Positions 1,982 to 61,257 of a stretch of DNA of 64,000 bases are shown piece after piece. The stretch lies in contig CAYQCJ010000003.1 in assembly GCA_964416025.1 (NCBI GenBank), positions 7,603-71,602 of the forward strand, in the 5' to 3' direction. The notes below the pieces were generated by a model, which was not told the DNA's origin, searched no databases, and worked only from the letters and a program-made list of their open reading frames with translations. Source of the DNA: an uncultured Staphylococcaceae bacterium (GTDB taxonomy: Bacteria > Bacillota_I > Bacilli_A > RFN20 > CAG-826). The translations under genes were made by a program, and so were the position numbers. Position 1 is the first letter of the stretch; each line of letters opens with the position of its first letter.

Positions 1982-3445
1982 TTATAAATTCTTAAAATCA
2001 AAAGAAATAGTTTTAAAATAACAGGCATAAGAAGAGACATTACTAATTTCAAAATATGTTGCATCAGACAATGTAAATACACCATCAACACCAACAACTT
2101 CAGTTAAAGAATCTTTACTAGTTCTGGCTTTTACAGTTATTGTTCCATCATATCCTTTATTTTCAACAATTTGATCAAATGTAATTGAACTTAATGCTGG
2201 TAACTCATTTACGTTTTCAAAATGAGATTCTGATTTCTTGCATTGAATTGCACTAACAGTTTTAAAACCTTTTTTAATATTAGTTGTTGAAAAATTCATT
2301 CCATCTTTTTCAAAAATTGCGCCATCAGTTCCATATTCACTACCAGTAGAGATATAAAAATTATCAGGAAGCAAAGTTATATCAGCAGTAATATTATCTA
2401 TAGGAGCCTCTCCGCTCTCGACAGTATAAATATATCCGTCAACACAGAATAAATTGTTATATAAATAAACATCAATAGCAAAAAAATTATCATCACCCAA
2501 AGACTTAGAGAAATAGAATTCATCATCAGTTGAGAGTTCTTCATCCAATATAAAGTCTTCTTGAGTTTTCATAAAATCAGCATATTCAACTACCGAATCA
2601 ATAGTTTCAGTCGATGAAGTATAACTGACTCCATCAATATCATCTGATGTTCCAAATCCTTCTAAATAAAGTGGTTCTAAAATTGAATTATCGATAAAGA
2701 AATAAGGGATATACAAGTCTTTTTGAATATATTTATCCATATAAGCTTTATCTTCGCTTGTCCAATCGGTTGGAAATTCAGCATCAATACCAGCAAAAAT
2801 ACTTAATTTAGCACCATCACTCACGACATACATATAGACGCCATCAGTTGTGTCTTTTAAATTAAAATAAGCAAGACTTTCTGAACTAGAATCTGTGGTA
2901 TAATTCCATAAATTTGTTCCATCAACGATAGTTTTATAATCAGCAATCGATGTGCTAGCGTTTTTAACTTCGCCACTTATTTCGATATAATATTGATTTG
3001 AAACTCTATCAATTCCCTTTTTAGCAACATAAGATTCATACCCAGTAAAATAAGGGATTGTAACTACTTCACCAAAGATATTTTCTATAAGAGTCTTAGT
3101 ATCTTCATTCCAATTATCTGCGGTTTTTATAAATGTTCCCGCGACTTTATTTTCACCTTTAACAAGTAAAAACCCTAGCGAATCCCCACTTAAATCATTA
3201 ATATAAGAAGTTTCGTTAATTGTTAAAGTCTCAATTTCGTATCCAGTATTTGGAGTAATTGTTAGGGTAACTTTATCTCCAACATTACCACTATTTTTAT
3301 CACTAGTTATGGTCCCATTAACCACATTATCAATAGTAACTGTACATTCATCAGTTGGTGTAACTACTTCATTATTCTTACAACCAGTGGTGATAACTCC
3401 AAGTGTGAGTGCTAAAGAAAGCACAAAAAGATGTCTTTTTTTCAT
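1982..3445 (-). CDS. surface lipoprotein with an N-terminal InlB-B-repeat-like domain
   Basis: Signal peptide plus lipobox (LGVITTGCKNN). The segment CTVTIDNVVNGTITSDKNSGNVGDKVTLTITPNTGYEIETLTIN fits the InlB B-repeat pattern. The rest has no recognisable domain. Confidence 0.7.
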   Translation of the reverse strand: MKKRHLFVLSLALTLGVITTGCKNNEVVTPTDECTVTIDNVVNGTITSDKNSGNVGDKVTLTITPNTGYEIETLTINETSYINDLSGDSLGFLLVKGENKVAGTFIKTADNWNEDTKTLIENIFGEVVTIPYFTGYESYVAKKGIDRVSNQYYIEISGEVKNASTSIADYKTIVDGTNLWNYTTDSSSESLAYFNLKDTTDGVYMYVVSDGAKLSIFAGIDAEFPTDWTSEDKAYMDKYIQKDLYIPYFFIDNSILEPLYLEGFGTSDDIDGVSYTSSTETIDSVVEYADFMKTQEDFILDEELSTDDEFYFSKSLGDDNFFAIDVYLYNNLFCVDGYIYTVESGEAPIDNITADITLLPDNFYISTGSEYGTDGAIFEKDGMNFSTTNIKKGFKTVSAIQCKKSESHFENVNELPALSSITFDQIVENKGYDGTITVKARTSKDSLTEVVGVDGVFTLSDATYFEISNVSSYACYFKTISFDFKNL

Positions 3446-7456: not shown

Positions 7457-7468
7457 CGTCAATCCCCA

Positions 7469-8347
7469 TTATTCTTCACTAGCATTGACACTTCTATCAA
7501 TTGCTGAGGTCATTAATTCTAATCTTTTTGCAGATGTGATTTTTGCTAAAGAAGCATTTAAAGCTTCTTGTAATTCTGTATTTCCTTTTTTAATTCCAAT
7601 TGAAACGCCAAGTTCGGCTTGTTTTTCACCCAAAATATCTTGATCAATATGGACTAAACCTAAAGTTTTTGAATTAGCAGCCACAATTGATTTAGCAACT
7701 GGTAATTCAGCAGTCATTGCAAAAGCACTACCATTCTTAACATCATTTGCAGCGGTACCAAATGTATCGACAGCTGTAGCGTGTTTTGCTCCATAAGAAA
7801 CAAAAACATCACCAATCATTGAATCTGTAACAGTTGCTTGTTGAGATTCGATAATCTTTCCATCAACAAAAGTTTTAAAATCATCTTTACTTACTGGAGT
7901 TGTATCACTATTTCCAGCAGGTACATCAGCTAATTTAGTAACAAAAACTAATTCACTTCTATAATATTCATCAGTAAAATCAATTTGTTTTTCTCTTTCT
8001 AGAGTATCAGTCATACCAGCAATAATACAATTAATTGTTCCGCCAGCAAGATCGACAGTTAAAGAATCCCAAACAGTTTTTCTAATAACAACTTCTTTTC
8101 CTAAATCTTCACTTAATAATTTAGCAACAGCAATATCGTAACCATCGGCATATTGACCGCTCTTTCCATCTACTGGTAAAGTGCTGTCACTTGATTTATA
8201 TTGTGTCCAGTTAAATGGAGCATAATTACATTCCATTCCTATAACTAAACGCGAATTATCAACAGATGAATTACATCCTGTTGAACTAATAGCAACACCA
8301 CACAAAAGTGCTGAAGCTATCACGAAGTTTCTCATTAATTTTTTCAT
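7469..8347 (-). CDS. amino-acid ABC transporter substrate-binding lipoprotein (family 3 SBP); probably lysine, given the upstream L-box
   Basis: Lipobox (ISSTGCNSS), SBP_bac_3-like sequence, first gene after the lysine riboswitch. Confidence 0.8.
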   Translation of the reverse strand: MKKLMRNFVIASALLCGVAISSTGCNSSVDNSRLVIGMECNYAPFNWTQYKSSDSTLPVDGKSGQYADGYDIAVAKLLSEDLGKEVVIRKTVWDSLTVDLAGGTINCIIAGMTDTLEREKQIDFTDEYYRSELVFVTKLADVPAGNSDTTPVSKDDFKTFVDGKIIESQQATVTDSMIGDVFVSYGAKHATAVDTFGTAANDVKNGSAFAMTAELPVAKSIVAANSKTLGLVHIDQDILGEKQAELGVSIGIKKGNTELQEALNASLAKITSAKRLELMTSAIDRSVNASEE

Positions 8348-8400: not shown

Positions 8401-8432
8401 CATTCATAATTTCATTAAAAATTAAGGATTAA

Positions 8433-8592
8433 CATCGATAGCGCCTCTACATAAAGTAGGAGTCTATAGGAGTGTTTCTCCATAGCCCAATCTCACACGA
8501 TACCTCTAGTGAGTTTCGGCAACTTCGCCTTTCGTTAGTTTCATAGGATGTCTCCTCAACTAATTACTAATCTAAGCTGCGCCTCTATCAAT
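8433..8592 (-). promoter_or_regulatory. lysine riboswitch (L-box) aptamer
   Basis: Minus-sense sequence: GATAGAGGCGCAGCTTAGATTAGTA...CGAAAGGCGAAGTTGCCGAAAC...GGAGAAACACTCC...TGTAGAGGCGCTATCGATG. This parallels the B. subtilis lysC leader as I recall it (GATAGAGGTGCGAACTTCAAGAGTA...GAAAGGGGAGCGTCGCCGAAG...GGCTGTCAAG). P1 can form from TGATAG/CTATCG. Confidence 0.8.
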
Positions 8593-8602
8593 CTTCGTTT
8601 TT

Positions 8603-8683: not shown

Positions 8684-8710
8684 AAATAGTTTGACCAATA
8701 CCATTGCTTT
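8684..8710 (-). repeat. possible degraded copy of the 29-nt operon-end motif
   Basis: Minus-sense AAGCAATGGTATTGGTCAAACTATTTT aligns to AAATAATGGGGATTGGCAAGGGATTTT with about 18 matching positions and 2 one-nt gaps, about 50 nt 3' of the ImmA pseudogene. Confidence 0.25.
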
Positions 8711-10015: not shown

Positions 10016-10174
10016 GTTTTGTTTTCTTCCTAGTGTATATTTGATCTAATGGCAAAATATTGTCCTTTTATTTATATAATCATTATGTGAAATTTTTTAT
10101 TTACGTAAACCACTTTAGTTTACATTATTTAAATTTTTACTTTTAAAAATAATACAATAACTATAAAAAATCAT

Positions 10175-10203
10175 AAAAATAAGTGGTCTTTGCAAGGGAT
10201 ATT
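10175..10203 (+). repeat. inverted, diverged copy of the 29-nt operon-end motif
   Basis: Plus-strand AAAAATAAGTGGTCTTTGCAAGGGATATT matches the reverse complement of the consensus, AAAAATAATGGGGATTGGCAAGGGATTTT, at about 23/29 positions. Confidence 0.45.
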
Positions 10204-10246
10204 GAAAATTTTCGTTATTTTTTATATTAAACACCTCTTCTATATG

Positions 10247-17934: not shown

Positions 17935-19425
17935 TTAAACGTTTTCAGGATATAAAGCATCAAGCAAAGCTTCAATAGCGGTAACTTTTGTGGTTGCACT
18001 TCCAAATCCAGTATAAGAAGCTAAGAATGCATTGCCATCGTTTAAAATAGTTCCTAAAGTGACAGTAGAATCTTCATCTTTTGTTTTTATATCCGGAATT
18101 ATACAACCTGCAACAATGTTATCAGTTGTATAACTTGTTCCTAAACTATTGGCATAAACAACTTTTAAATCTTTTGTCATCGTATCATCAAAATTCATAT
18201 AACCTTTATTCATGTTCTTGAATATTTCAGATTCATCTTCGAAACCATATAAATTTGACCAGAACGAGAAAATTGATAAATATGCATGTCCAGTTACTAA
18301 ATATGATGAAGCAATTAAATAATTAACTGCATTGGAATCATTAATCTTTGTTGCATCGAACATTTGTGCGCTACTCCATTCAGCAGTTGTTGAATTAGCA
18401 TTAGGAGAAGTTGTTCCGTCTGCATTTATTGTTATCATATAAATATTTGTTGGAATTGTTTTGTGACCAACAATTACAGCGCAATAGAAATCTTCATAAT
18501 TCTTAGTTGTGGTCGTTCCGTCTTCATTTTTGACTTCATGCGTTTTGGTATTATCATAATAATCAATACCAAAATATCCATCTAAGTTATAGATAACTTT
18601 ATCGTGATTTGCATCGGTAGATTTTGTTGTAAAATTTACTTCAATGTAATTGTTTTTTTGTGATAATTCTTTAGCTTTAAGCAATTTATCAGGATAAGCT
18701 TTTGGAGCGGTTCCGTCTTCGATAAATGTTTTAGCATCAACTAAATCATCGCCACCATCAACGTTAGTAACGGATATTAAAATATCTTCGGCTTCATCAA
18801 GATCAATAGTTAACAATAAATCTAAAGTGTCATTTGTTGATAAAGTTGCGGAATTAATTGTATAAGTTTCTTTAATGGAACTGGTAGATAAATAAACAGG
18901 CTTTAAGAAGGTATCTAAAATTGTCACATCACTCTTAATGTCGGAATCAAGAGAATAACTAGCTGAAGTTTCATCTAGGCTTGATGGAATTGCAAAATTC
19001 TTTAAGCCAATGGTAACTTTATCGCTGCCAGTAACAGTTTTATCATTATCGATAACATATCCTGCCACAAATTGTTCTTCATCATTTTTTTGAGTATATG
19101 AATATTCCAAAACTCCCTTAGCATGGTTTAAATAACCAAAATGAGCAATCTTAGTATTGTCTTCAATATTTCTTACACTTTTTTCAATAGCGTAACTTCT
19201 AGAATTAACGATAGAATCAATTCCTGAAGCATATGTTGTATTATTTAGTTTCAAAGTAAAGCCAACATGTCCGTTATAATCATACCTATTTGCTTTTACA
19301 AATTTATTAATAGCCGCCGTTAAAGTGGCTTTATTGTCATCAACTGGTGTTGTATTACCATTACAAGAAGACAAAACAAATGTTGATGCAATAAGTAAAA
19401 TACCTAAATTCTTTTTATTCATCAT
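17935..19425 (-). CDS. lipoprotein of an uncharacterised family (tandem paralog B)
   Basis: Lipobox (FVLSSCNGN). The start is ambiguous: GTG 19431, ATG 19425 or ATG 19422, after an AGGTGA SD that overlaps the upstream stop. Confidence 0.7.
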   Translation of the reverse strand: MMNKKNLGILLIASTFVLSSCNGNTTPVDDNKATLTAAINKFVKANRYDYNGHVGFTLKLNNTTYASGIDSIVNSRSYAIEKSVRNIEDNTKIAHFGYLNHAKGVLEYSYTQKNDEEQFVAGYVIDNDKTVTGSDKVTIGLKNFAIPSSLDETSASYSLDSDIKSDVTILDTFLKPVYLSTSSIKETYTINSATLSTNDTLDLLLTIDLDEAEDILISVTNVDGGDDLVDAKTFIEDGTAPKAYPDKLLKAKELSQKNNYIEVNFTTKSTDANHDKVIYNLDGYFGIDYYDNTKTHEVKNEDGTTTTKNYEDFYCAVIVGHKTIPTNIYMITINADGTTSPNANSTTAEWSSAQMFDATKINDSNAVNYLIASSYLVTGHAYLSIFSFWSNLYGFEDESEIFKNMNKGYMNFDDTMTKDLKVVYANSLGTSYTTDNIVAGCIIPDIKTKDEDSTVTLGTILNDGNAFLASYTGFGSATTKVTAIEALLDALYPENV

Positions 19426-22583: not shown

Positions 22584-22608
22584 AAAAAACGCACCCTTTT
22601 AGGTGCGT
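22584..22608 (-). terminator. rho-independent terminator at the end of the opp operon
   Basis: In minus sense, ACGCACC-TAAAAG-GGTGCGT is followed by T6. Confidence 0.75.
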
Positions 22609-22615
22609 TATTTTT

Positions 22616-22645
22616 AAAATCCTATGCCAATCCCTATTATTTTTT
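22616..22645 (-). repeat. 29-nt operon-end motif, copy A (overlaps the oppF stop)
   Basis: Plus strand AAAATCCTATGCCAATCCCTATTATTTTT, about 26/29 to the consensus AAAATCCCTTGCCAATCCCCATTATTTTT. Confidence 0.7.
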
Positions 22646-24052
22646 CTTATTTTCCGAATCCAATTTCTTAATTTGCTCTTTATATTTAGCAATTTCAACA
22701 CTATTAGCAAGAATAAAATGGCCTGGAAGAATTTCAACAAATTTTGGCTTTTCTTTACTATAATCATGAACTTCTTGTGGATTATAAGTAATTCTCGTTC
22801 TTGTTTTTTCAAGTTCTGGATCAGGTTGAGGAATAGCACTCAACAAAGAGTTTGTATAAGGGTGAAGTGGGTGTTTGAACAACTCTTCACTGCTGGCTTC
22901 TTCAACAACTTCGCCGAAATACATAACAGCAATACGATCGCAGAAATATTTAACAATACTTAAATCGTGAGCAATGAAAATCATTGATAAACCCATTTCA
23001 TTTCTCAAATCTTCAAGCAAATTAATAATTTGAGCTCTAACAGAAACATCAAGTGCACTAACTGGTTCATCACAAATTAAGAATTTTGGGTTCATGATAA
23101 GCGCTCTAGCAATGCCAATTCTTTGACGTTGTCCACCACTAAATTCATGTGGATATCTATTTGCATAATCTTCGATTAAACCAACCTTTTCCAAGGCTTT
23201 TACAACCTTTTCATGGTTTTGTTTTTTATTGTGAAACCCTTGAATTTGAAGGCCTTCACTAATAATTGATTCAACAGTCATACGTGGATCAAGAGAATCA
23301 ATTGGGTCTTGGAAAATCATTTGAATTTCACTCATTAGCTTCTTATTTACATGCTTATCATCGTATTTAATTTGCTTGATTTTACTCTTTTGAATCTTCA
23401 AAACATTGTTAAAGTGAGTTTTGGCTTGATCAACTTCACTCTTATACTCATCTAAACTAATCTTCTTAGAAGATAATTCTTTCTTTAAAGATTTTACTTT
23501 TTTAGCATATCTAATCTTACTAAATTTAATTTCTTTTTCGTTCCATCTACTACCGGCAGCAATTCTAACACCTTTATAATATATAGAACCACTTGTGATA
23601 TTGTATAAACGAATTATCGATCTACCTGTGGTAGTTTTACCACATCCGGACTCACCAACAATACCAAAAACTTCTCCTTCGTGGACTTGAAAATTAACAT
23701 CATGAACAGCTTTTAATTTAAATTTATTGTGGCCTTTTCCAAAGAAGAAATATTGCTTTAAGTGATTAACACTTAAAATAACCTTTTTATCGACATATTC
23801 TTGCTTATACTTAACTTTTTTGTTGATGATTTCTTTAATATTTTTAGCTTCTTTAATTAAGTCCTCATCGCTACTTAAGTTATGTTCTGCGTCCTCATCA
23901 TAATTATAAGGACTAGTTGAATCAACTTCCTTTTGGAACTTTTTAGCATTAGTTTCATCGACATTATCATCTTTTATACTTTGGAGATTACTTTCATCAA
24001 AAAGCTCTTTATCAAGTGAATCAGTTTCTTTATTCTTTACTTGCTTTTTCAT
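22637..24052 (-). CDS. oppF: oligopeptide ABC transporter ATP-binding protein OppF, with an N-terminal acidic extension and a K-rich insert
   Basis: Walker A GESGCGKTT, Q-loop MIFQDP, signature FSGGQRQRIGIARAL, Walker B LICDEPVSALD, and the oligopeptide C-terminal motif HPLHPYTNSLLSAIP. Confidence 0.85.
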   Translation of the reverse strand: MKKQVKNKETDSLDKELFDESNLQSIKDDNVDETNAKKFQKEVDSTSPYNYDEDAEHNLSSDEDLIKEAKNIKEIINKKVKYKQEYVDKKVILSVNHLKQYFFFGKGHNKFKLKAVHDVNFQVHEGEVFGIVGESGCGKTTTGRSIIRLYNITSGSIYYKGVRIAAGSRWNEKEIKFSKIRYAKKVKSLKKELSSKKISLDEYKSEVDQAKTHFNNVLKIQKSKIKQIKYDDKHVNKKLMSEIQMIFQDPIDSLDPRMTVESIISEGLQIQGFHNKKQNHEKVVKALEKVGLIEDYANRYPHEFSGGQRQRIGIARALIMNPKFLICDEPVSALDVSVRAQIINLLEDLRNEMGLSMIFIAHDLSIVKYFCDRIAVMYFGEVVEEASSEELFKHPLHPYTNSLLSAIPQPDPELEKTRTRITYNPQEVHDYSKEKPKFVEILPGHFILANSVEIAKYKEQIKKLDSENKKK

Positions 24053-32193: not shown

Positions 32194-32220
32194 AAAATCT
32201 TAATACCAAATTAATATTTT
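32194..32220 (-). repeat. operon-end motif, half-conserved copy E
   Basis: AAAATCTTAATACCAAATTAATATTTT lies 5 nt 3' of the stop at 32226. It shares the AAAATC..TTA..AAATTAAT..TTT pattern with copy D. Confidence 0.4.
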
Positions 32221-35986: not shown

Positions 35987-37603
35987 TTATTCTTTTTCTA
36001 CGTAAGTGACATTTGAAATAGTTTTCTTCTCACAATCATAATTGCATCTAATTTTTGTAATTTCTTTATATTCAGTATCAGAAATATAAGCGTGATATGA
36101 ATTGTCGCTAGAAAAATTAATGGTAAAATCATAAACAGTTAAAACACCATTAGTTATTGAAAGATTATTAGAATAACTCGAAACTTCAATGTCTTTATTC
36201 TCTTTTACACAATGAACATATCCAGTTCCATCATCATTTAAGGTTATAGTATCACCATTATCAAGATCACCAATTGTTGAACCTAAAGAAAATTGCACTC
36301 TATCTTCTAATACGCTTTCAGTCATAAAATCAATTATAGTAATCGTTTTATCTTTTATATTTAAAATAAAACGCGTGTATAAAGAGCCTTTATTAACAAT
36401 TATTTCGTATTTTCCTTCTTCAACAATTAAATCCGTCTCCTTATCGTAAGTAAATTTCTCAGATATATAACAATTATTCAAACTTATATTGATATCTTTT
36501 CCATAGTAATTCATCAACAAAGTCTTGTCTTCATTAACTTTAAGAGAGCCGCTATAAATTCCGTCTTGAATAAAGGTTTGATCTATTGTTTCTTTCAAAA
36601 ACTTCTCAGCATCATATGAGGAACTCTCAAAAATCAAATCTTTAAAATTTAAATTAAGTTCTTTTATAATAGAATATAAAGTTTCGTTTTCGAATTCACT
36701 TTGTTCATAAAAATAAACAATTCCTTCTTGCACTTTATAATGATAAAAAGCATTTGATCCGGTGTTGAAATCGTAATATCCCTTGCTAATCCCCTCTGTT
36801 TTAGATAAATACCATAAATCTACTTTATCGTTTTCTTTGAAGGTAAATTTAAGAGTGTTTGTTATTGTTTGCTTTTTACCTAAATCTAGATCTTCGGAAT
36901 TTTCTACACCATTAAACGTATATTCTTTCCCAATTTCAAAATTGGCAGTTGAGGAAATTATTGTTGATTCATCACTTGGTTTTGATGCCACAATTGTGTA
37001 ATCATTTAGAAGATACCCAACTCCAACATTTCTTGTACCAATATCATTTGCATCATGAGCAGCAATCCAAAAATAATTACCAGTCTGAAAAGAAAAAATA
37101 TCAGTAGAGGCTGAGGTTAATACTTCTTCAAGAATATTTTTAGTTTTAATTATAAGAGTCTCGTCCTCATTTAGTTGATACGACTCTTTTATGGTACTAA
37201 CAAATTTTCCGTCCTTTATATTTGTTTCATATTTACGACCTTCACCAAACGAGTCTTGATAAGTTTGATAAATAGTAAAAACCACTGTAAAGGTGCCATA
37301 TTTTTCTGAAAAATATGTTTTTAAACCATCATCATATGTTCCTTGATCATTTATTTTTGGTTCTATAAAAGTACACACATAATTTTCGTTATCTAACTTG
37401 GGAATAACTTCAGTATGTTCTTCATTAGTTACAGAATTCTTGTAAGTTTTTGAACCATCTTTTTCTTCAGTTGGATCAACAGAGCTAATTAATTCATCAA
37501 TTCCTTCAACATCTTCAATGCCAGTACCACAAGAGCCTAAAAATGCAAAACAAAAAGAACTAGCAACTAATAAAATCGCAAATTTTTTCTTAAATTTTAA
37601 CAT
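35987..37603 (-). CDS. lipoprotein, unknown function
   Basis: The likely start is ATG 37603 (MLKFKKKFAILLVASSFCFAFLGSCGTG) after a CAAAGGAG SD. The track ORF extends to 37624. Confidence 0.7.
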   Translation of the reverse strand: MLKFKKKFAILLVASSFCFAFLGSCGTGIEDVEGIDELISSVDPTEEKDGSKTYKNSVTNEEHTEVIPKLDNENYVCTFIEPKINDQGTYDDGLKTYFSEKYGTFTVVFTIYQTYQDSFGEGRKYETNIKDGKFVSTIKESYQLNEDETLIIKTKNILEEVLTSASTDIFSFQTGNYFWIAAHDANDIGTRNVGVGYLLNDYTIVASKPSDESTIISSTANFEIGKEYTFNGVENSEDLDLGKKQTITNTLKFTFKENDKVDLWYLSKTEGISKGYYDFNTGSNAFYHYKVQEGIVYFYEQSEFENETLYSIIKELNLNFKDLIFESSSYDAEKFLKETIDQTFIQDGIYSGSLKVNEDKTLLMNYYGKDINISLNNCYISEKFTYDKETDLIVEEGKYEIIVNKGSLYTRFILNIKDKTITIIDFMTESVLEDRVQFSLGSTIGDLDNGDTITLNDDGTGYVHCVKENKDIEVSSYSNNLSITNGVLTVYDFTINFSSDNSYHAYISDTEYKEITKIRCNYDCEKKTISNVTYVEKE

Positions 37604-39640: not shown

Positions 39641-39650
39641 ATTAATTTCA

Positions 39651-39682
39651 AAAACCACTGCCAATCGGCAGTGGTTTTGTTT
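39651..39682. terminator. bidirectional terminator between typA and the FtsX permease gene
   Basis: AAAACCACTGCC-AATC-GGCAGTGGTTTT followed by GTTTT. Confidence 0.8.
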
Positions 39683-49700: not shown

Positions 49701-50620
49701 TGAAAAAGAAATGGTTGTTCTTAAATAATTTGAGTCTAAAAATAATTGCTTGTGTCGCTATGACGCTCGACCATCTTGGTATTTTTTTACAATTCTATTT
49801 AACTGATCCAGCCTATGAACCACTAATTACTGCCTTTAGAATCATTGGTCGTATTGCGTTACCAATATTTATTTATTTAGTATTTGAAGGATGTAGAAAA
49901 ACTAAAAATATTCAAAAATACTTGATGCGATTAGGTATCGCTTCTTTAGGACTGTATTTATTAATCATTCTCACTTTCGTTATTGCACCAAATATCGGCT
50001 TCAATTTTGGAAGTGGATTCTTCCTTGAAAATATCTTTTTTACCTTATTCTTGTTAGTCCTTACTTATTACTCTTTATTCAAAAATAAGGGGGGTTGGCA
50101 AAGGTTTTTGATAATTATTCCTATCTTATTTGTTGTCGGAGGATGTATATATGAGGTTGCTTGTTTTAATGGAGCTTTCAATTATAAAACTGCTTTCCAA
50201 GGCTTCTTAGATGGAATAATGCCTCAATACCCATTTGAATCTTTAATTATGTTTTTAATTGTTGCTATCTCGAATTATTTCTACGAAAGAAACATCAAAA
50301 AATCTTTAGGACTTGAAGGTGAACAACTTCAAGCTGTTATTGATTCTGATCAATCACAATTTTATAGAAATGTCATGATGGTTATTGCAACTATTATCAT
50401 TTCTTTAATATGTGAAGGTTTAACATATGTCACAAATATTGGGCCATATGTTGTCGATGCCACTATTAGACAAAAAGAAGCTTGGTTCCTAATTTCTTCA
50501 GTATTTATTATTTTTTATAATGGTAAACTGGGTCCTTCAAACAAAATTACCAAGTACGGATTCTATATTTATTATCCAGTGCATATTGGTCTACTTGCAT
50601 TAATTTTCGTGCTAATATAA
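49700..50620 (+). CDS. TraX-family membrane protein
   Basis: LKIIACVAMTLDHLG is the TraX hallmark. Multi-TM protein. Its start overlaps the stop of the upstream gene. Confidence 0.7.
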   Translation: MKKKWLFLNNLSLKIIACVAMTLDHLGIFLQFYLTDPAYEPLITAFRIIGRIALPIFIYLVFEGCRKTKNIQKYLMRLGIASLGLYLLIILTFVIAPNIGFNFGSGFFLENIFFTLFLLVLTYYSLFKNKGGWQRFLIIIPILFVVGGCIYEVACFNGAFNYKTAFQGFLDGIMPQYPFESLIMFLIVAISNYFYERNIKKSLGLEGEQLQAVIDSDQSQFYRNVMMVIATIIISLICEGLTYVTNIGPYVVDATIRQKEAWFLISSVFIIFYNGKLGPSNKITKYGFYIYYPVHIGLLALIFVLI

Positions 50621-50638: not shown

Positions 50639-50941
50639 ATGTTATTACATTTAAGCAAAAAAGATAATTTTGACGAATTAATTAAAGGTGGAGATGTTAT
50701 TGTAGATTTCTTTGCCACTTGGTGTGGACCATGCAAAATGCTTGCACCAGAACTTGAGGATCTTGCTTATGAACATCCAGAAATTAAGGTTATTAAAGTT
50801 GATGTCGATGAATTCAACGAATTAGCCGGTAGATTTAATGTTAGAGCTGTTCCAACACTTGTCGTTTTCAAAAACGGTGTTGCCACAAATCAATCCATGG
50901 GTTACATGGATAAAAATGCTGTCCTTAGATTAATTAAGTAA
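50639..50941 (+). CDS. trxA: thioredoxin
   Basis: WCGPCK active site. The likely start is ATG 50639, 7 nt after a GGAGG SD. The track ORF begins at TTG 50621. Confidence 0.9.
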   Translation: MLLHLSKKDNFDELIKGGDVIVDFFATWCGPCKMLAPELEDLAYEHPEIKVIKVDVDEFNELAGRFNVRAVPTLVVFKNGVATNQSMGYMDKNAVLRLIK

Positions 50942-52087
50942 TTATTTTTTATCAAATTCGGAATTTATTAATTTAACCCATTGAGGTTTTATTGAATCAA
51001 TATTCCATAAGAAACTTCTTTTGTAAGAAGTTTCTTTTAATTTCTTAAGTTTTTCTTTATTCGATAAAACCTCAATAATTTTGTCGGCATAATCTTTTGG
51101 ATCTTTACTATTAATAATAAATCCATCGACACCATCTATAATTATTTCATTGGTTGAATCGCCAAAATTTCCCATAATTGTTGGCACGCTTTGTGAACTG
51201 GCCTCAATTTTAACTAAAGGAAAACCTTCGTAATTGGATGTCATAAGGAGTAAATCTGATTCAAGAAATTTAGTTTTAATTTCTTTTGTTGCACTATTTA
51301 AAGAAACATATCCATTTAATTTATTTTCTTTTATAAATATATTTATTTCATTAAATAAAGGTCCGTCTCCATAAATATTTAGCTTAAATTTAAATTTTCT
51401 CTCTCTTAATTCTTTAGCAACTTTTAAAGCTAGAAGAGGATTCTTTTGTTCACATAAACGTCCAACAAATATCAGCGAATTATTATGATATTCAAAATTA
51501 AATTCTGGTTTAAATCGACAAGGATTATAAATAAAACTTACAGGACATCCCAGCTTCTTTTTTGAATTTAACATGTCATTTAGCGTCTCTTTTGACAAAA
51601 CGACATATTGATCGGGTTTTTTGATTAACGAAAAACCAAAGCGAACTGGACGCGAATTAAAGTGTGAATAATTGTAGTTATAATGGAATATTTTCTTTAT
51701 ATGATTTGGAGATAAAAAATAACTATCATACTCAGAACATATCAAAACATTATCACCAACCATTGCTTTTATTTTCTTTCTGATTGAATGCTTTTTTAAG
51801 AAAAACCAATAAAAGACTCGTAAAGCCAATTTAATATTTTTAAATGGATGAAAACCTCTTATTTTAATAAAAGATTGATCACATGTTGTGACTTCACTTG
51901 GTATTCCAATAGAAAATATATTTATACGTTTATCAATATCATACAAACAACCACCATCATTTCTAGATGTCGTAATTAAAGTGATATCATAAACATCGCA
52001 TAAATTATTAATTAAATCGATGGTAACTGCCTCACTACCACCCAATTTATCAATCTGTTGAATCCACCAAAATAATTTCTTTTTCAT
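50942..52087 (-). CDS. glycosyltransferase family 4 (GT-B)
   Basis: C-terminal SNYEGFPLVKIEASSQSVPTI matches the EX7E-type GT4 motif. Confidence 0.8.
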   Translation of the reverse strand: MKKKLFWWIQQIDKLGGSEAVTIDLINNLCDVYDITLITTSRNDGGCLYDIDKRINIFSIGIPSEVTTCDQSFIKIRGFHPFKNIKLALRVFYWFFLKKHSIRKKIKAMVGDNVLICSEYDSYFLSPNHIKKIFHYNYNYSHFNSRPVRFGFSLIKKPDQYVVLSKETLNDMLNSKKKLGCPVSFIYNPCRFKPEFNFEYHNNSLIFVGRLCEQKNPLLALKVAKELRERKFKFKLNIYGDGPLFNEINIFIKENKLNGYVSLNSATKEIKTKFLESDLLLMTSNYEGFPLVKIEASSQSVPTIMGNFGDSTNEIIIDGVDGFIINSKDPKDYADKIIEVLSNKEKLKKLKETSYKRSFLWNIDSIKPQWVKLINSEFDKK

Positions 52088-52308: not shown

Positions 52309-52917
52309 ATGAATAAAAACGAATCAAAACCATTAGATATTTTGCTAGGTACCTCTAACTTAGGAAAACTTAAAGAATACGAAGAGATGTTTGTTGGATA
52401 CAATGTTAAATTCCATACCTTAAAAGAATTTAATATTGATATCGATATTGATGAAAACGGAAAGACATATAAAGAAAACGCTTTGATAAAAGCCAATGCT
52501 TTAAAAAGCTTCACTTCCATGCCTTTATTAACAGATGATTCTGGTATTGAAATCGATGCTTTAGGAGAACACTTCCCTGGCATCTATACACACCGTTATG
52601 CAATAAAAAATGGGGGATTCGCAAAGAATAATGCATTTTTAAGTTCCACTTACCCCGGTTCAAAAGCAAAATTTTCGTGTTGTATTTGCATTGTTTTTCC
52701 TTCTCAAGATCCATTATTTTTTGAAGGCGAAGTTAAAGGCAAAATTGCTAATAATACTTATGGCGTTGAAGGTTTTGGCTATGATCCAATCTTTATTCCT
52801 GATGGATATAAAGAGACCTTCGCTCAACTTGGTGAAGAAATTAAAAACAGCATTTCCCATAGAGGAAACGCCGTTAAGTATTTAATCGAATATTTAAAAG
52901 AAAATAATCTTATTTAG
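52309..52917 (+). CDS. rdgB: non-canonical purine NTP pyrophosphatase RdgB/HAM1
   Basis: TSNLGKLKEY, LTDDSGIEIDAL, GFGYDPIF, SHRGNA. Confidence 0.9.
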   Translation: MNKNESKPLDILLGTSNLGKLKEYEEMFVGYNVKFHTLKEFNIDIDIDENGKTYKENALIKANALKSFTSMPLLTDDSGIEIDALGEHFPGIYTHRYAIKNGGFAKNNAFLSSTYPGSKAKFSCCICIVFPSQDPLFFEGEVKGKIANNTYGVEGFGYDPIFIPDGYKETFAQLGEEIKNSISHRGNAVKYLIEYLKENNLI

Positions 52918-53839: not shown

Positions 53840-53905
53840 ACGCCTATTATATATTATAAGATTAAATGAAAACACTAAAAATCACGTTTTCGTAAAATTG
53901 TTTTT

Positions 53906-53934
53906 AAAATCCCTTGCTAATCCCCATTATTTTT
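53906..53934 (-). repeat. 29-nt operon-end motif, copy B
   Basis: AAAATCCCTTGCTAATCCCCATTATTTTT (28/29 to consensus), abutting the stop of the ImmA-like gene. Confidence 0.7.
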
Positions 53935-54614
53935 TAGAAACGAATATTATTAACTCTTTCATCAACAAGTTCATTGTCTGTAATTTTATCAATGACCACT
54001 CCGGTTGTTTCAGTAATCATAAATTTATAAACAGTAGTGTCGCTATGACCAAGCAAAAGTTCAATATCAATATTATCTTTTAAAGAATTAATTTTTCTAT
54101 AAACAGCACATTCAGGAGAAACAAAAAATTGTTTCTCAATTTCTTTTTCATTTAATTTTTGGCAAACTCTTTCAGGAATCAAAATGTAACCAGCTAATCT
54201 ATTAGCTTGCCACTCTGGATCAGAAAATGATTGAACACCTTTTCCATCATCATCCTTCAATTTCGGTTTTCTATTTGTAACTTGCATCAAAAACATATGT
54301 GCAAATTCATGAGTTAATGTAAATCTAGAACGAGGATCAACTTTTGCGGAGTCATATTGACTACTTTTTATATAAATAGTATTTTCTTGAAAAGAATAAA
54401 ACGCCAATTGTTTCTCTTCATCAAAAATTTCATCATCATCTTCAACAACTTGATAAGAAAAATTGTTAAAAATCGGATCGTCCATTGCCAAATCTAAAAC
54501 TTTTAAAATAGGAAACTCTTCAGCTTCCTCGATTTTAAAAATTTTTCTTATTCCATCTGCGTATTTAATTAATTGCTTCTTATTAGTAGGTGCACAAAAA
54601 CATAATTGATTCAT
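53934..54614 (-). CDS. ImmA/IrrE-family (COG2856) zinc metallopeptidase
   Basis: HExxH in LTHEFAHMFLMQ, the downstream DPEWQANRLAGYILIP motif typical of COG2856, and its position immediately after an XRE gene. Confidence 0.8.
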   Translation of the reverse strand: MNQLCFCAPTNKKQLIKYADGIRKIFKIEEAEEFPILKVLDLAMDDPIFNNFSYQVVEDDDEIFDEEKQLAFYSFQENTIYIKSSQYDSAKVDPRSRFTLTHEFAHMFLMQVTNRKPKLKDDDGKGVQSFSDPEWQANRLAGYILIPERVCQKLNEKEIEKQFFVSPECAVYRKINSLKDNIDIELLLGHSDTTVYKFMITETTGVVIDKITDNELVDERVNNIRF

Positions 54615-56061: not shown

Positions 56062-56089
56062 AAAATCCCTTATATCTAAATTAATTTTA
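56062..56089 (-). repeat. operon-end motif, half-conserved copy D
   Basis: AAAATCCCTTATATCTAAATTAATTTTA abuts the TGA stop at 56090. The first 10 nt are identical to the consensus. Confidence 0.45.
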
Positions 56090-57466: not shown

Positions 57467-58360
57467 CTATAAACTCTTCCTTCTCAAGAAACTTGAAAGT
57501 AGTTGTAAAATGACAACAACCACAAATAAAGGTATTAAAATTGCACCAACTTTATCGTATTGTTGGGCATCCATTGCATTACTTAATAATTGTCCAATAC
57601 CACCAGCACCAACAAATCCTAAAATAACAGATGCTCTAACATTAATTTCAAATGTATATAAAAAGTTAGAGAAAAACATTGGTTTAACTTGAGGATATAA
57701 GGCGATTCTAGCGGCTTTAAATCTTGTTGCACCAGTTGAAATGCTGGCTTCAAATGGATTCATATTACAAGTATCGATATATTCATACATTAATTTAAAC
57801 ATTATACCCATCGTAAATACCGCTATTGCCCAAATACCGGCAGTATTACCAATTCCAAAAAAGACTGTACATAAAATTGCTAAAACATATGTTGGGATGG
57901 TTCTAATAATATCAACAATAATTCTAACTGGTTGATAAATGTACCATTTAACGACAATATTTCTAGAAGCTACAATAAATAGAGGAATAGCAATAGCTGT
58001 TCCGATGGTTGTTCCAATAAAAACCATTTCCACTGTTGACCAAATTGCTGGAATCGCTGTGGCAAAAATATATTCGTTATATCGATCCCAAGTTTTTAAA
58101 CTGTATTCAGAAGGTGTAAACATCTGTCCAAAGATTACACCAATTTGGTCAATACGGATTTTTGTTGGCAATTCAATAAAGATAAAGCAACATGCAAAAA
58201 TTGCAGCAACAATTAATAAATATAAGAAACCAAGGCTTCTTTTTTTCTCAATAGTTTGGTTAGCTTTTCCATTTCCGCCCAATGATACAACAACTGTTTT
58301 GTATCTCAATTTATGGAAAAACCTATGCAAACCCCCCTTATTTTCAGTTTGCATCATCAA
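57467..58360 (-). CDS. phnE: phosphonate-type ABC transporter permease PhnE (first copy)
   Basis: [26 protein letters not shown]...[15 protein letters not shown]. Paralog of the downstream gene. Confidence 0.8.
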
Positions 58361-59123
58361 CTTCTCCTAATTTTTCGGAGTGTTTCAAAGCACGTCCGTA
58401 AATGTTAAATAACACTTCATCGGTAATATCTTCAGGACGTCCATCAAAGACAATTTTTCCAGCTTTTATACCGATAATACGATTAGCATATTTAATTGCT
58501 AAATCAACATGGTGCATATTAGCAACAATGGTGATTCCAAATTCTTTATTAATTTTTGCAAAGTCATCCATAACCGAAACAGTTGTAACAGGATCAAGAC
58601 TTGCAACAGGTTCATCAGCTAAAATAATCTTAGGTTCTTGAGTTAAAGCTCTCGCTAAGGCCACACGTTGTTGTTGGCCTCCGCTAAGTTGATCGGCTCT
58701 AATAAAAGCTTTATCTAAAATACCCAATTTATCGAGAGATTGTAAAGCTAACATCTTTTCTTCCTTTGTATAGATACCAAATAAAGTACTAAAGGTAGAG
58801 TGGTAACCCACTCTACCTGCTAGTACATTTTTATAAACCGAGGATCTATTAACTAAGTTAAAAGATTGAAAAATCATGCCGATATTTCTACGAATTAAAC
58901 GCAATTTCTTGCCTTTTGCTTTCGAAATATCATCACCATTTACAACAATGGTTCCTGATTGAATCGTGTGCATTTTGTTTATCGATCTTAAAAGGGTGGA
59001 TTTACCAGCACCTGATAAACCAATAATACAAAGAAAATCACCATCATTAACAGTAAGATTTACATCATCCAGCCCCTTAACACCACTAGGATAAATCTTG
59101 CTTACATTTTTAAATTCAATCAT
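58344..59123 (-). CDS. phnC: phosphonate-type ABC transporter ATP-binding protein PhnC
   Basis: [56 protein letters not shown]. Confidence 0.85.
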
Positions 59124-61222: not shown

Positions 61223-61227
61223 TTTTC

Positions 61228-61256
61228 AAAATCCCTTGCCAATCCCCATTATTTTT
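61228..61256 (-). repeat. 29-nt operon-end motif, copy C (used as the consensus)
   Basis: AAAATCCCTTGCCAATCCCCATTATTTTT lies between the convergent stops of 60566..61222 and proS, 2 nt 3' of the proS stop. Confidence 0.7.
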
Positions 61257-61257
61257 A

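Follow-up and report, generated by a model that had tools for sequence, protein, structure and literature searches.

Repetitive extragenic palindromes (REP/BIME) are found in Enterobacteria and Pseudomonas; many of those of E. coli are reportedly (Liang, Rudd and Deutscher 2015) located within 15 nt of a stop codon, and to our knowledge the interspersed extragenic repeats (REP, BOX, ERIC) nearly all form hairpins. The motif described here resembles REP/BIME in that a unit of about 35 nt is found in many dispersed copies and in either orientation, is extragenic, following stop codons or lying between convergent genes, has a lineage-specific sequence and is kept at orthologous sites. In contrast to REP/BIME, it has neither palindrome nor stem-loop, two direct GGGATT repeats taking the place of the stem, and its host belongs to an AT-rich Gram-positive lineage. 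Unlike REPINs, it is not arranged in inverted doublets. No RAYT-type transposase was seen in the fetched loci, which are parts of genomes.

The operators of OmpR/PhoB-type response regulators are tandem direct-repeat hexamers 11 bp apart, and the GGGATT-like hexamers of the motif display the same centre-to-centre spacing of 11 bp. However, most copies of the motif are located at gene 3' ends rather than at promoters, three of them filling promoter-less convergent spacers, and the central GC and the flanks are conserved as well. We know of no operator with a similar sequence.

The motif was recognized in a window of 64,000 nucleotides (contig CAYQCJ010000003.1) from an uncultured member of the Bacilli (31% G+C), DNA which is also present in a JGI metagenome contig. 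It most likely represents an undescribed repeat family of a few uncultured low-GC Bacilli. The Rfam scan returned no relevant match, either at the gathering score in the window, where only one lysine riboswitch and three tRNAs were retrieved, or at E<=10 in the copy-bearing stretches; a viral scan and BLAST searches of plasmids and phages gave no meaningful match to the motif, and a string search of the literature gave nothing. The first-pass annotation, made from the sequence alone, had likewise not recognized a described element. Our tentative reading is that the motif is a non-palindromic, REP-like interspersed repeat which would act as double-stranded DNA (dsDNA) bound by a putative protein.

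Copies in the window and the family consensus

A 29-mer, AAAATCCCTTGCCAATCCCCATTATTTTT on the plus strand, is found at 61228-61256 and again, with one mismatch, at 53906-53934 and, with three mismatches, at 22616-22644, all three copies being in minus-strand orientation. These copies had been reported by the first-pass annotation and are confirmed here: while the window contains three near-identical copies, no match was found in 100 dinucleotide-preserving shuffles. Read on the minus strand, they have in common AAAAATAAT-RGGGATT-NGCA-WRGGATTTT-RAAAA. A motif profile was built from 30 copies and used for nhmmer searches of the window and of related loci, from which about 40 copies were recovered at E<=1e-3. 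The features of the window are as follows.

61223-61257, minus strand: copy A, exact 29-mer (nhmmer E = 4.9e-10)
53900-53934, minus strand: copy B, 1 mismatch (E = 7.3e-9)
22610-22644, minus strand: copy C, 3 mismatches (E = 1.3e-7)
22588-22609, bidirectional: hairpin terminator from a terminator scan of both strands (fold dG -16, z -3.7)
10174-10210, plus strand: type-2 variant AAAATAAGTGGTCTTTGCAAGGGATATTGAAAA (nhmmer E = 2.6e-7)
58310-58345, minus strand: divergent copy AAAATAAGGGGGGTTTGCATAGGTTTTT (nhmmer E = 2.7e-6)
56062-56089, minus strand: possible decayed relic, seen in the sequence, not significant in the profile search
7460-7473, minus strand: junction of a stop codon and a Shine-Dalgarno (SD) sequence, 14 nt AATAATGGGGATTG in common with the 5' half of the motif
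923-950 (more narrowly 928-950), minus strand: coding look-alike (E = 1.6e-4), 24 nt AAAAATAATGGGGATTAGCAAGGG identical to copy B
36770-36802, minus strand: coding look-alike GGGGATTAGCAAGGGATATT, 19/20 nt (E = 7e-4), encoding EGISKGY
50081-50116, plus strand: coding look-alike in a TraX-family gene (Pfam TraX; nhmmer E = 3.1e-7)

Copy A constitutes the entire 35-nt convergent spacer between proS (stop codon 61258-61260) and the gene of a 218-aa membrane protein (stop codon 61220-61222), the 29-mer and the proS stop codon being separated by 1 nt. Copy B overlaps the stop codon (53934-53936) of an ImmA/IrrE-like peptidase gene (neighbours named by Pfam), and the next minus-strand gene is located about 60 nt downstream. 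In copy C, the stop codon of oppF (22637-22639; gene named from Pfam ABC_tran and oligo_HPY) sits inside the motif as the TAA of AATAAT. When both strands were scanned for terminators, no terminator-like site was found at copy A or B; the hairpin at 22588-22609 does not overlap copy C but follows directly downstream, in the order stop codon, motif, hairpin. As a side observation, the OppF-like ATPase itself (22637-24052, minus strand, 471 aa) has a long N-terminal extension rich in Lys and Glu, and its ABC domain contains an insertion, as is common in Mollicutes-like Bacilli.

The copy at 10174-10210, initially reported as an inverted and diverged copy at 10175-10203, is real and belongs to the sub-type GGTCTTTGCA; it has the opposite orientation and lies in a 464-nt spacer with a hairpin terminator about 40 nt away. 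The divergent copy at 58310-58345 was absent from the earlier list. It begins right after the TGA stop codon (58344-58346) of a phosphonate-type ABC ATPase gene, within an operon, and overlaps the annotated 5' end of the permease gene. Regarding the weaker candidates proposed earlier, neither the 'half-conserved' copies (32194-32220 and 56062-56089) nor the 'relic' (8684-8710) was recovered by the 30-copy profile at E<1; at 56062-56089, a convincing 3' half, AAGGGATTTTCAAAA, is kept alone and begins at the stop codon of an AAA_33 kinase-like gene.

The family consensus is AAAATAAT-RGGGATT-NGCA-RGGGATTTT-RAAAA, with sharp boundaries at about 33 nt. In an AT background, the information peaks at GGG 13-15, GC 20-21 and GGG 24-26 (profile positions), the two G-runs being 11 nt apart and giving two GGGATT-like direct half-sites. 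The AT-only flanks on the two sides are AAAATAAT and TTTTRAAAA. When both strands of 15 copies were folded, no common hairpin was revealed, and fold z-scores were significant only where an independent neighbouring terminator was included.

Several further identities were considered for this consensus. Sigma-54 and sigma-70/alternative-sigma promoters and the CodY, Fur, CtsR, MraZ and IHF boxes were compared by eye as consensus sequences, and none fits; in a scan, promoter-like matches were found at the frequency expected from shuffles. A T-loop/acceptor/CCA layout can loosely be recognized in the C-rich strand, the CCA being CTA in half of the copies. A relic of a tRNA 3' end or att site was rejected since 0/10 distinct tRNAs in the fetched DNA match and no integrase is found nearby.

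Distribution, constraint and possible mobility

Related genomes were covered by a pattern scan of species-representative genomes, followed by a metagenome scan. While the matches in species-representative genomes are mostly chance or coding (e.g., the glutamine amidotransferase motif GICNGFQ), the entire consensus with its AT flanks is found at six loci of 'Bacillales bacterium UBA4855' and at one locus of 'Bacilli bacterium RUI474', and metagenome contigs supplied further UBA4855-like copies. In addition, syntenic loci of relatives were fetched by way of ProS homologues. A close relative among these, L063 (ProS 96% identical), has copies after proS and after a YitT-family gene, at the same sites as in the window organism. 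In L072-L074 (ProS 76% identical), a weak copy is kept at the YitT stop codon; since the same metagenome yielded UBA4855-like contigs, these loci are estimated to belong probably to the UBA4855 lineage. The YitT-stop copy is kept in three lineages. About 100 kb in total from five other relatives (ProS 77-86% identical) contain no copy except for one weak hit in L069; in some of the motif-free relatives, the gene order is unchanged but the orthologous site is empty. A repeat search of two of them (L064 and L065) for an analogous motif returned only noise. L065 does contain, at 18897-19328, two tandem 216-nt repeats (79% identical) in the gene of a large LRP1-like beta-propeller/MBG_3 surface protein. 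Among the UBA4855-like loci, 11 further diverged copies are located within about 58 kb around the index copies. The density is estimated at about one copy per 5-20 kb, and at about one per 20 kb in loci picked regardless of the motif; L055 has 5 copies in 12 kb.

The copies at the proS and YitT sites are identical at 54/66 positions (82%) between the window organism and L063, whereas the 4-fold degenerate sites of proS are only 55% identical in the same pair (P = 6e-6 for the contrast). The differences are mostly at low-information positions: GG 13-14, GG 25-26, T17 and T28-T31 are kept, and, in the central GC, G20 differs in one copy. The hairpin following the YitT gene differs in sequence between the two organisms. 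The copy at 58310-58345 has 43/45 nt in common with L063, and in the region shared by both organisms 3/3 copies are retained at orthologous sites. Because they are retained and 82% identical though synonymous sites are near saturation, the copies are not decaying neutrally. The motif is under purifying selection and is, in the sense of being constrained, functional. Two peculiarities of the same regions can be added. The whole junction of the ABC ATPase and permease genes (window 58300-58395, minus strand; L063 14280-14370) is about 95% identical at the DNA level, synonymous sites being near saturation, and the permease start is ambiguous, either an ATG overlapping the end of the ATPase gene or a TTG 36 nt downstream of the ATPase stop. 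In comparison with L063 (7900-8090), the window organism (L001 2940-4760) has an additional 450-aa gene of SLFN_AlbA_2/HATPase_c_4 type, which is located between the YitT terminator and a tRNA-Ser; missing from L063, it is a small strain-specific insertion adjoining both a motif copy and the tRNA.

Some copies carry a second form of the core, GGTCTTTGCA (GGTCTTTRCA), in which the states T15, C16 and T19 are linked (Fisher P = 1.5e-4). This sub-type is common to the copy at 10174-10210 and to L001-2940, L055-5402, L006-1254 and L060-1204. It is found in non-orthologous copies of both lineages, and looks like copy-lineage structure beyond the variation tolerated at a site. Moreover, the patchy spread of the family is unexpected for a core host function and fits a gained or selfish element better. 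Together, the sub-type structure and the patchy distribution leave room for an origin by copy-and-paste.

It is accordingly possible, if rather unlikely, that the motif is a selfish or mobile short repeat, either a non-palindromic analogue of REP/REPIN or MITE-like, which would have spread by copy-and-paste, been tolerated at gene 3' ends and possibly been co-opted. Besides the linked sub-type and the phylogenetic patchiness, the dispersal of multiple copies in both orientations, the sharp boundaries at about 33 nt, the REP-like niche at 3' ends and in convergent spacers, and the clustering seen in L055 are all expected of such an element. As for MITEs and solo IS terminal repeats, the motif is short, dispersed and multi-copy, with sub-families. 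It differs from them by the lack of terminal inverted repeats (TIRs), target-site duplications (TSDs), a transposase and a partner end within kilobases, by being too short for a MITE, and by its purifying selection. The internal repeats are direct rather than inverted, no hairpin is formed, and the flanks do not co-vary as duplicated target sites would: AAAAT recurs on both sides as part of the consensus and not as a duplication, since deviant 5' flanks (L010, L055) are not mirrored at the 3' side. No transposase or integrase is encoded near any copy in the fetched loci, which are parts of genomes and include the copy-rich L055 and the only inverted pair (L050, 4.7 kb apart), which encloses acyltransferase, glycosyltransferase and HTH genes. 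The identity of an IS or MITE end, which would have refuted the first-pass annotation, was thus rejected. The retention without neutral decay described above also speaks against a selfish repeat, as does the TraX look-alike, which is a native segment and not an insertion. If the motif were nevertheless a mobile unit, a mobilization mechanism independent of hairpins or inverted ends would be needed.

Placement, orientation and candidate functions

A distance of at most 8 nt from a flanking stop codon is found for 16/24 intergenic copies, compared with 7.7 expected from uniform placement inside the same spacers (P about 5e-6); copy B, filed as coding because of a shadow ORF, is outside this count and also abuts a stop codon. 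Adjacency to stop codons, first proposed for the window, holds for copies A, B and C and for most intergenic copies, and the bias toward gene 3' ends is strong. The accompanying proposal that only operon-terminal genes are concerned was not upheld: the copy at 58310-58345 is intra-operon, and L055-4005, L022 and L061 are located upstream of genes, in 5' or divergent regions. In three convergent pairs (at copy A, in L011 and in L045), the spacer of 24-35 nt consists entirely of the motif. The flanking genes are unrelated among copies (proS, oppF, rplT, rpsR, thiI, MntP, ZIP, CDF, Fe-ADH, histidine kinase and others), so that a conserved neighbour gene could be discarded. Other convergent genes can also be mentioned: at 52910-52917 and 50941-50942 of the window they overlap or abut (0-8 nt) without a terminator, which illustrates the compactness of the genome.

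With regard to orientation, 6 copies adjoin a co-directional gene by their AAAATAAT end, 7 adjoin a convergent gene by their GGATTTT end, and 3 do both; expressed as the strand in the mRNA at the stop codon, these are 6 G-rich only, 7 C-rich only and 3 both. The orientation relative to the mRNA, described as fixed, is indeed so in the window: there, in L063 and in L001, all stop-adjacent copies are in the G-form in the mRNA of the upstream gene. It is not so in the UBA4855-like genomes, where the C-rich strand is found in stop-adjacent mRNA at least as often, and no strand bias emerges from the related genomes as a whole. The G-rich strand of the motif coincides with the G-skewed strand in the window but with the C-skewed strand in 7/9 UBA4855-like loci; with an orientation so inconsistent relative to GC skew, a polar site of the Ter, KOPS or Chi type was rejected.

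The first-pass annotation had suggested three mechanisms, namely an SD-like decoy, an RNA site in the 3' UTR and termination without a hairpin. All of them need the G-rich strand in the mRNA, and the strand symmetry makes a strand-specific RNA role unlikely. In such a role, the transcript UAAUGGGGAUUGGCAAGGGAUUUU, with two SD/CsrA-like GGGAU sites, would be bound by ribosomes or an RNA-binding protein, processed at its 3' end or terminated independently of a hairpin. The uniform G-form of the window organism and L063 is consistent with it, and, where a hairpin is present, the usual order stop codon, motif, hairpin implies that the motif is transcribed. The 5' half is also identical to the working junction at 7460-7473; the 14-nt identity noticed there at the outset is present, and the junction separates two transporter genes. 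(A lysine riboswitch, RF00168, 76.8 bits, is located at 8431-8595, minus strand, upstream of the transporter operon which ends with this junction.) Like other SD-like sequences that do not initiate translation, the motif contains GGGGA/AGGGA runs without a start codon, none being found at SD distance. However, STAB-SD of cryIIIA lies near the 5' end of the mRNA and is strand-specific, whereas the C-rich strand of the motif is in mRNA as often as the G-rich strand. A 7-codon mini-ORF with a conserved stop, MGI(G/S/C)KGF, is present in about half of the copies; its rejection as an identity (as MGIGKGF*) follows from the ATG being ATA in half of the copies and from one copy having no stop. The motif is non-coding and without a conserved hairpin, as had been stated. 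Upstream of four copies there is no co-directional gene, and the copies L022, L055-4005 and L061 in 5' or divergent regions and the lack of a conserved structure likewise tell against an RNA element. Within the window's own lineage, where the strong copies are all in the G-form, an RNA role is conceivable.

A relationship to terminators is more doubtful still. The motif could be what is left of hairpin terminators after decay, one half of them, or it could serve intrinsic terminators as an accessory module: like intrinsic bidirectional terminators, it is located directly 3' of genes and in convergent spacers, with A-tract and T-tract flanks. Copy A is similar to part of a real terminator at 39641-39681, namely its loop and one of its arms (TTTCAAAA..TGCCAATC..TTTT). 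In its L063 orthologue, the 3' half of the motif has become part of a terminator hairpin with perfect pairing, GGGGATTTT-gaa-AAAATCCCC, with T5 after it. Comparison of L063 11429-11475 with window 61223-61257 indicates that 12 extra nt in L063 create this terminator, so that at the proS spacer a terminator was apparently either added to the motif or lost from it. Unlike this orthologue, all other copies are without a complementary arm. The motif has no G+C-rich stem, and it is the primary sequence that is conserved, not the pairing, the reverse being the case in the true hairpins nearby. The identity of an intrinsic terminator was rejected since a G+C-rich hairpin with a U-tract is missing at copies A and B and the hairpin of copy C is separate. 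In addition, five copies adjoin ordinary hairpin terminators, usually in the order stop codon, motif, hairpin; with a normal, intact terminator adjacent, a termination role would be redundant there and the copies would not be needed.

The occurrence in convergent spacers, the strand symmetry and the lack of structure argue for recognition as dsDNA over RNA mechanisms. Because either orientation works and no RNA fold is conserved, recognition of dsDNA by a protein is most likely. The niche, a few bases after stop codons and in convergent spacers, is that of REP elements and terminators, and selection holds the motif there. In the REP-like reading that we favour, a putative protein would read the two GGGATT-like half-sites, 11 bp or one helical turn apart, together with the central GC, the AT-only tracts flanking this core on both sides. 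Its inferred binding may mark an operon boundary or block read-through, provide topological relief between converging genes, or serve other chromosome-level roles. The near-invariant core of 24-29 nt is long for a simple operator, which counts against a protein site.

A more specific version of protein recognition, in which a lineage-specific protein binds the motif as DNA and forms a hairpin-independent and bidirectional operon boundary, seems improbable. The protein on the GGGATT-N5-GGGATT core would stall RNA polymerase arriving from either side; the stall would occur over the AT-only tracts (AAAATAAT; TTTTRAAAA), where the RNA:DNA hybrid is weak, and the transcript would be released. Such a roadblock would operate genome-wide in small-genome Bacilli and would explain how the motif alone can fill a convergent spacer of 24-35 nt.

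Whichever mechanism applies, the family occupies a REP-like niche, yet what defines it is a primary sequence containing direct half-sites; it is also strand-symmetric, and its conservation in these uncultured, small-genome Bacilli is well above the synonymous level. If it is a protein site marking gene ends, it would point to an unrecognized way of delimiting transcription units or of handling converging transcription in these lineages. Whether protein site or mobile unit, the motif is a compact and easily synthesized probe for finding its binding partner.

Look-alikes inside genes

Sequences resembling the motif can also be found in coding regions. At 923-950, the 24-mer shared with copy B encodes KIMGISKG in the Big_2 domain of a secreted nuclease; by our own calculation, the chance of such a match in the window is about 1e-9. 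The TraX look-alike at 50081-50116 corresponds, from an alignment of orthologs, to a native loop (KNKGGWQRFL) without insertion. At 14 bits or more, 9 coding copies were counted, in several frames, against about 0 expected from codon-shuffled controls. Many low-scoring coding hits probably reflect Lys/Asn-Gly-hydrophobic composition or protein homology and were not counted as members.

The occurrence of partial copies arising in situ within native coding segments, above codon-shuffled controls, is reminiscent of DNA uptake sequences, the USS of Haemophilus and the DUS of Neisseria. It can be hypothesized that the motif is an analogue amassed by biased uptake and recombination, which we consider very improbable. 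The motif is like USS/DUS in being strand-symmetric and recognizable as dsDNA, in its AT-rich flanks, in its enrichment at gene termini, in its lineage-specific, dialect-like sub-types and in the in-frame partial copies in genes. In contrast, its density is at least 10-fold below that of known USS/DUS, its core is much longer than known uptake signals, and 6- to 8-mers derived from the motif show no over-representation in the window. Sequence-specific DNA uptake is not known in Firmicutes.

Two further groups of matches can be mentioned. ORFs of UBA4855-like loci (L045 at about 1298-1320 and L053 at 2983-3021) encode a common peptide, ..K.GFAGD(I/F)D.., with codons mimicking the motif core GGATTTGCAGGGGAT; their products may be paralogues, a warning that some coding 'copies' may be due to protein homology. 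Finally, the 22-nt pattern AATGGGGATTNGCAAGGGATTT is present in three Synechococcus genomes (L005, L017 and L042) in the conserved context ..GTTGCTRAAAYYTAGCC.., and probably represents one conserved coding or RNA locus unrelated to the motif of the Bacilli.
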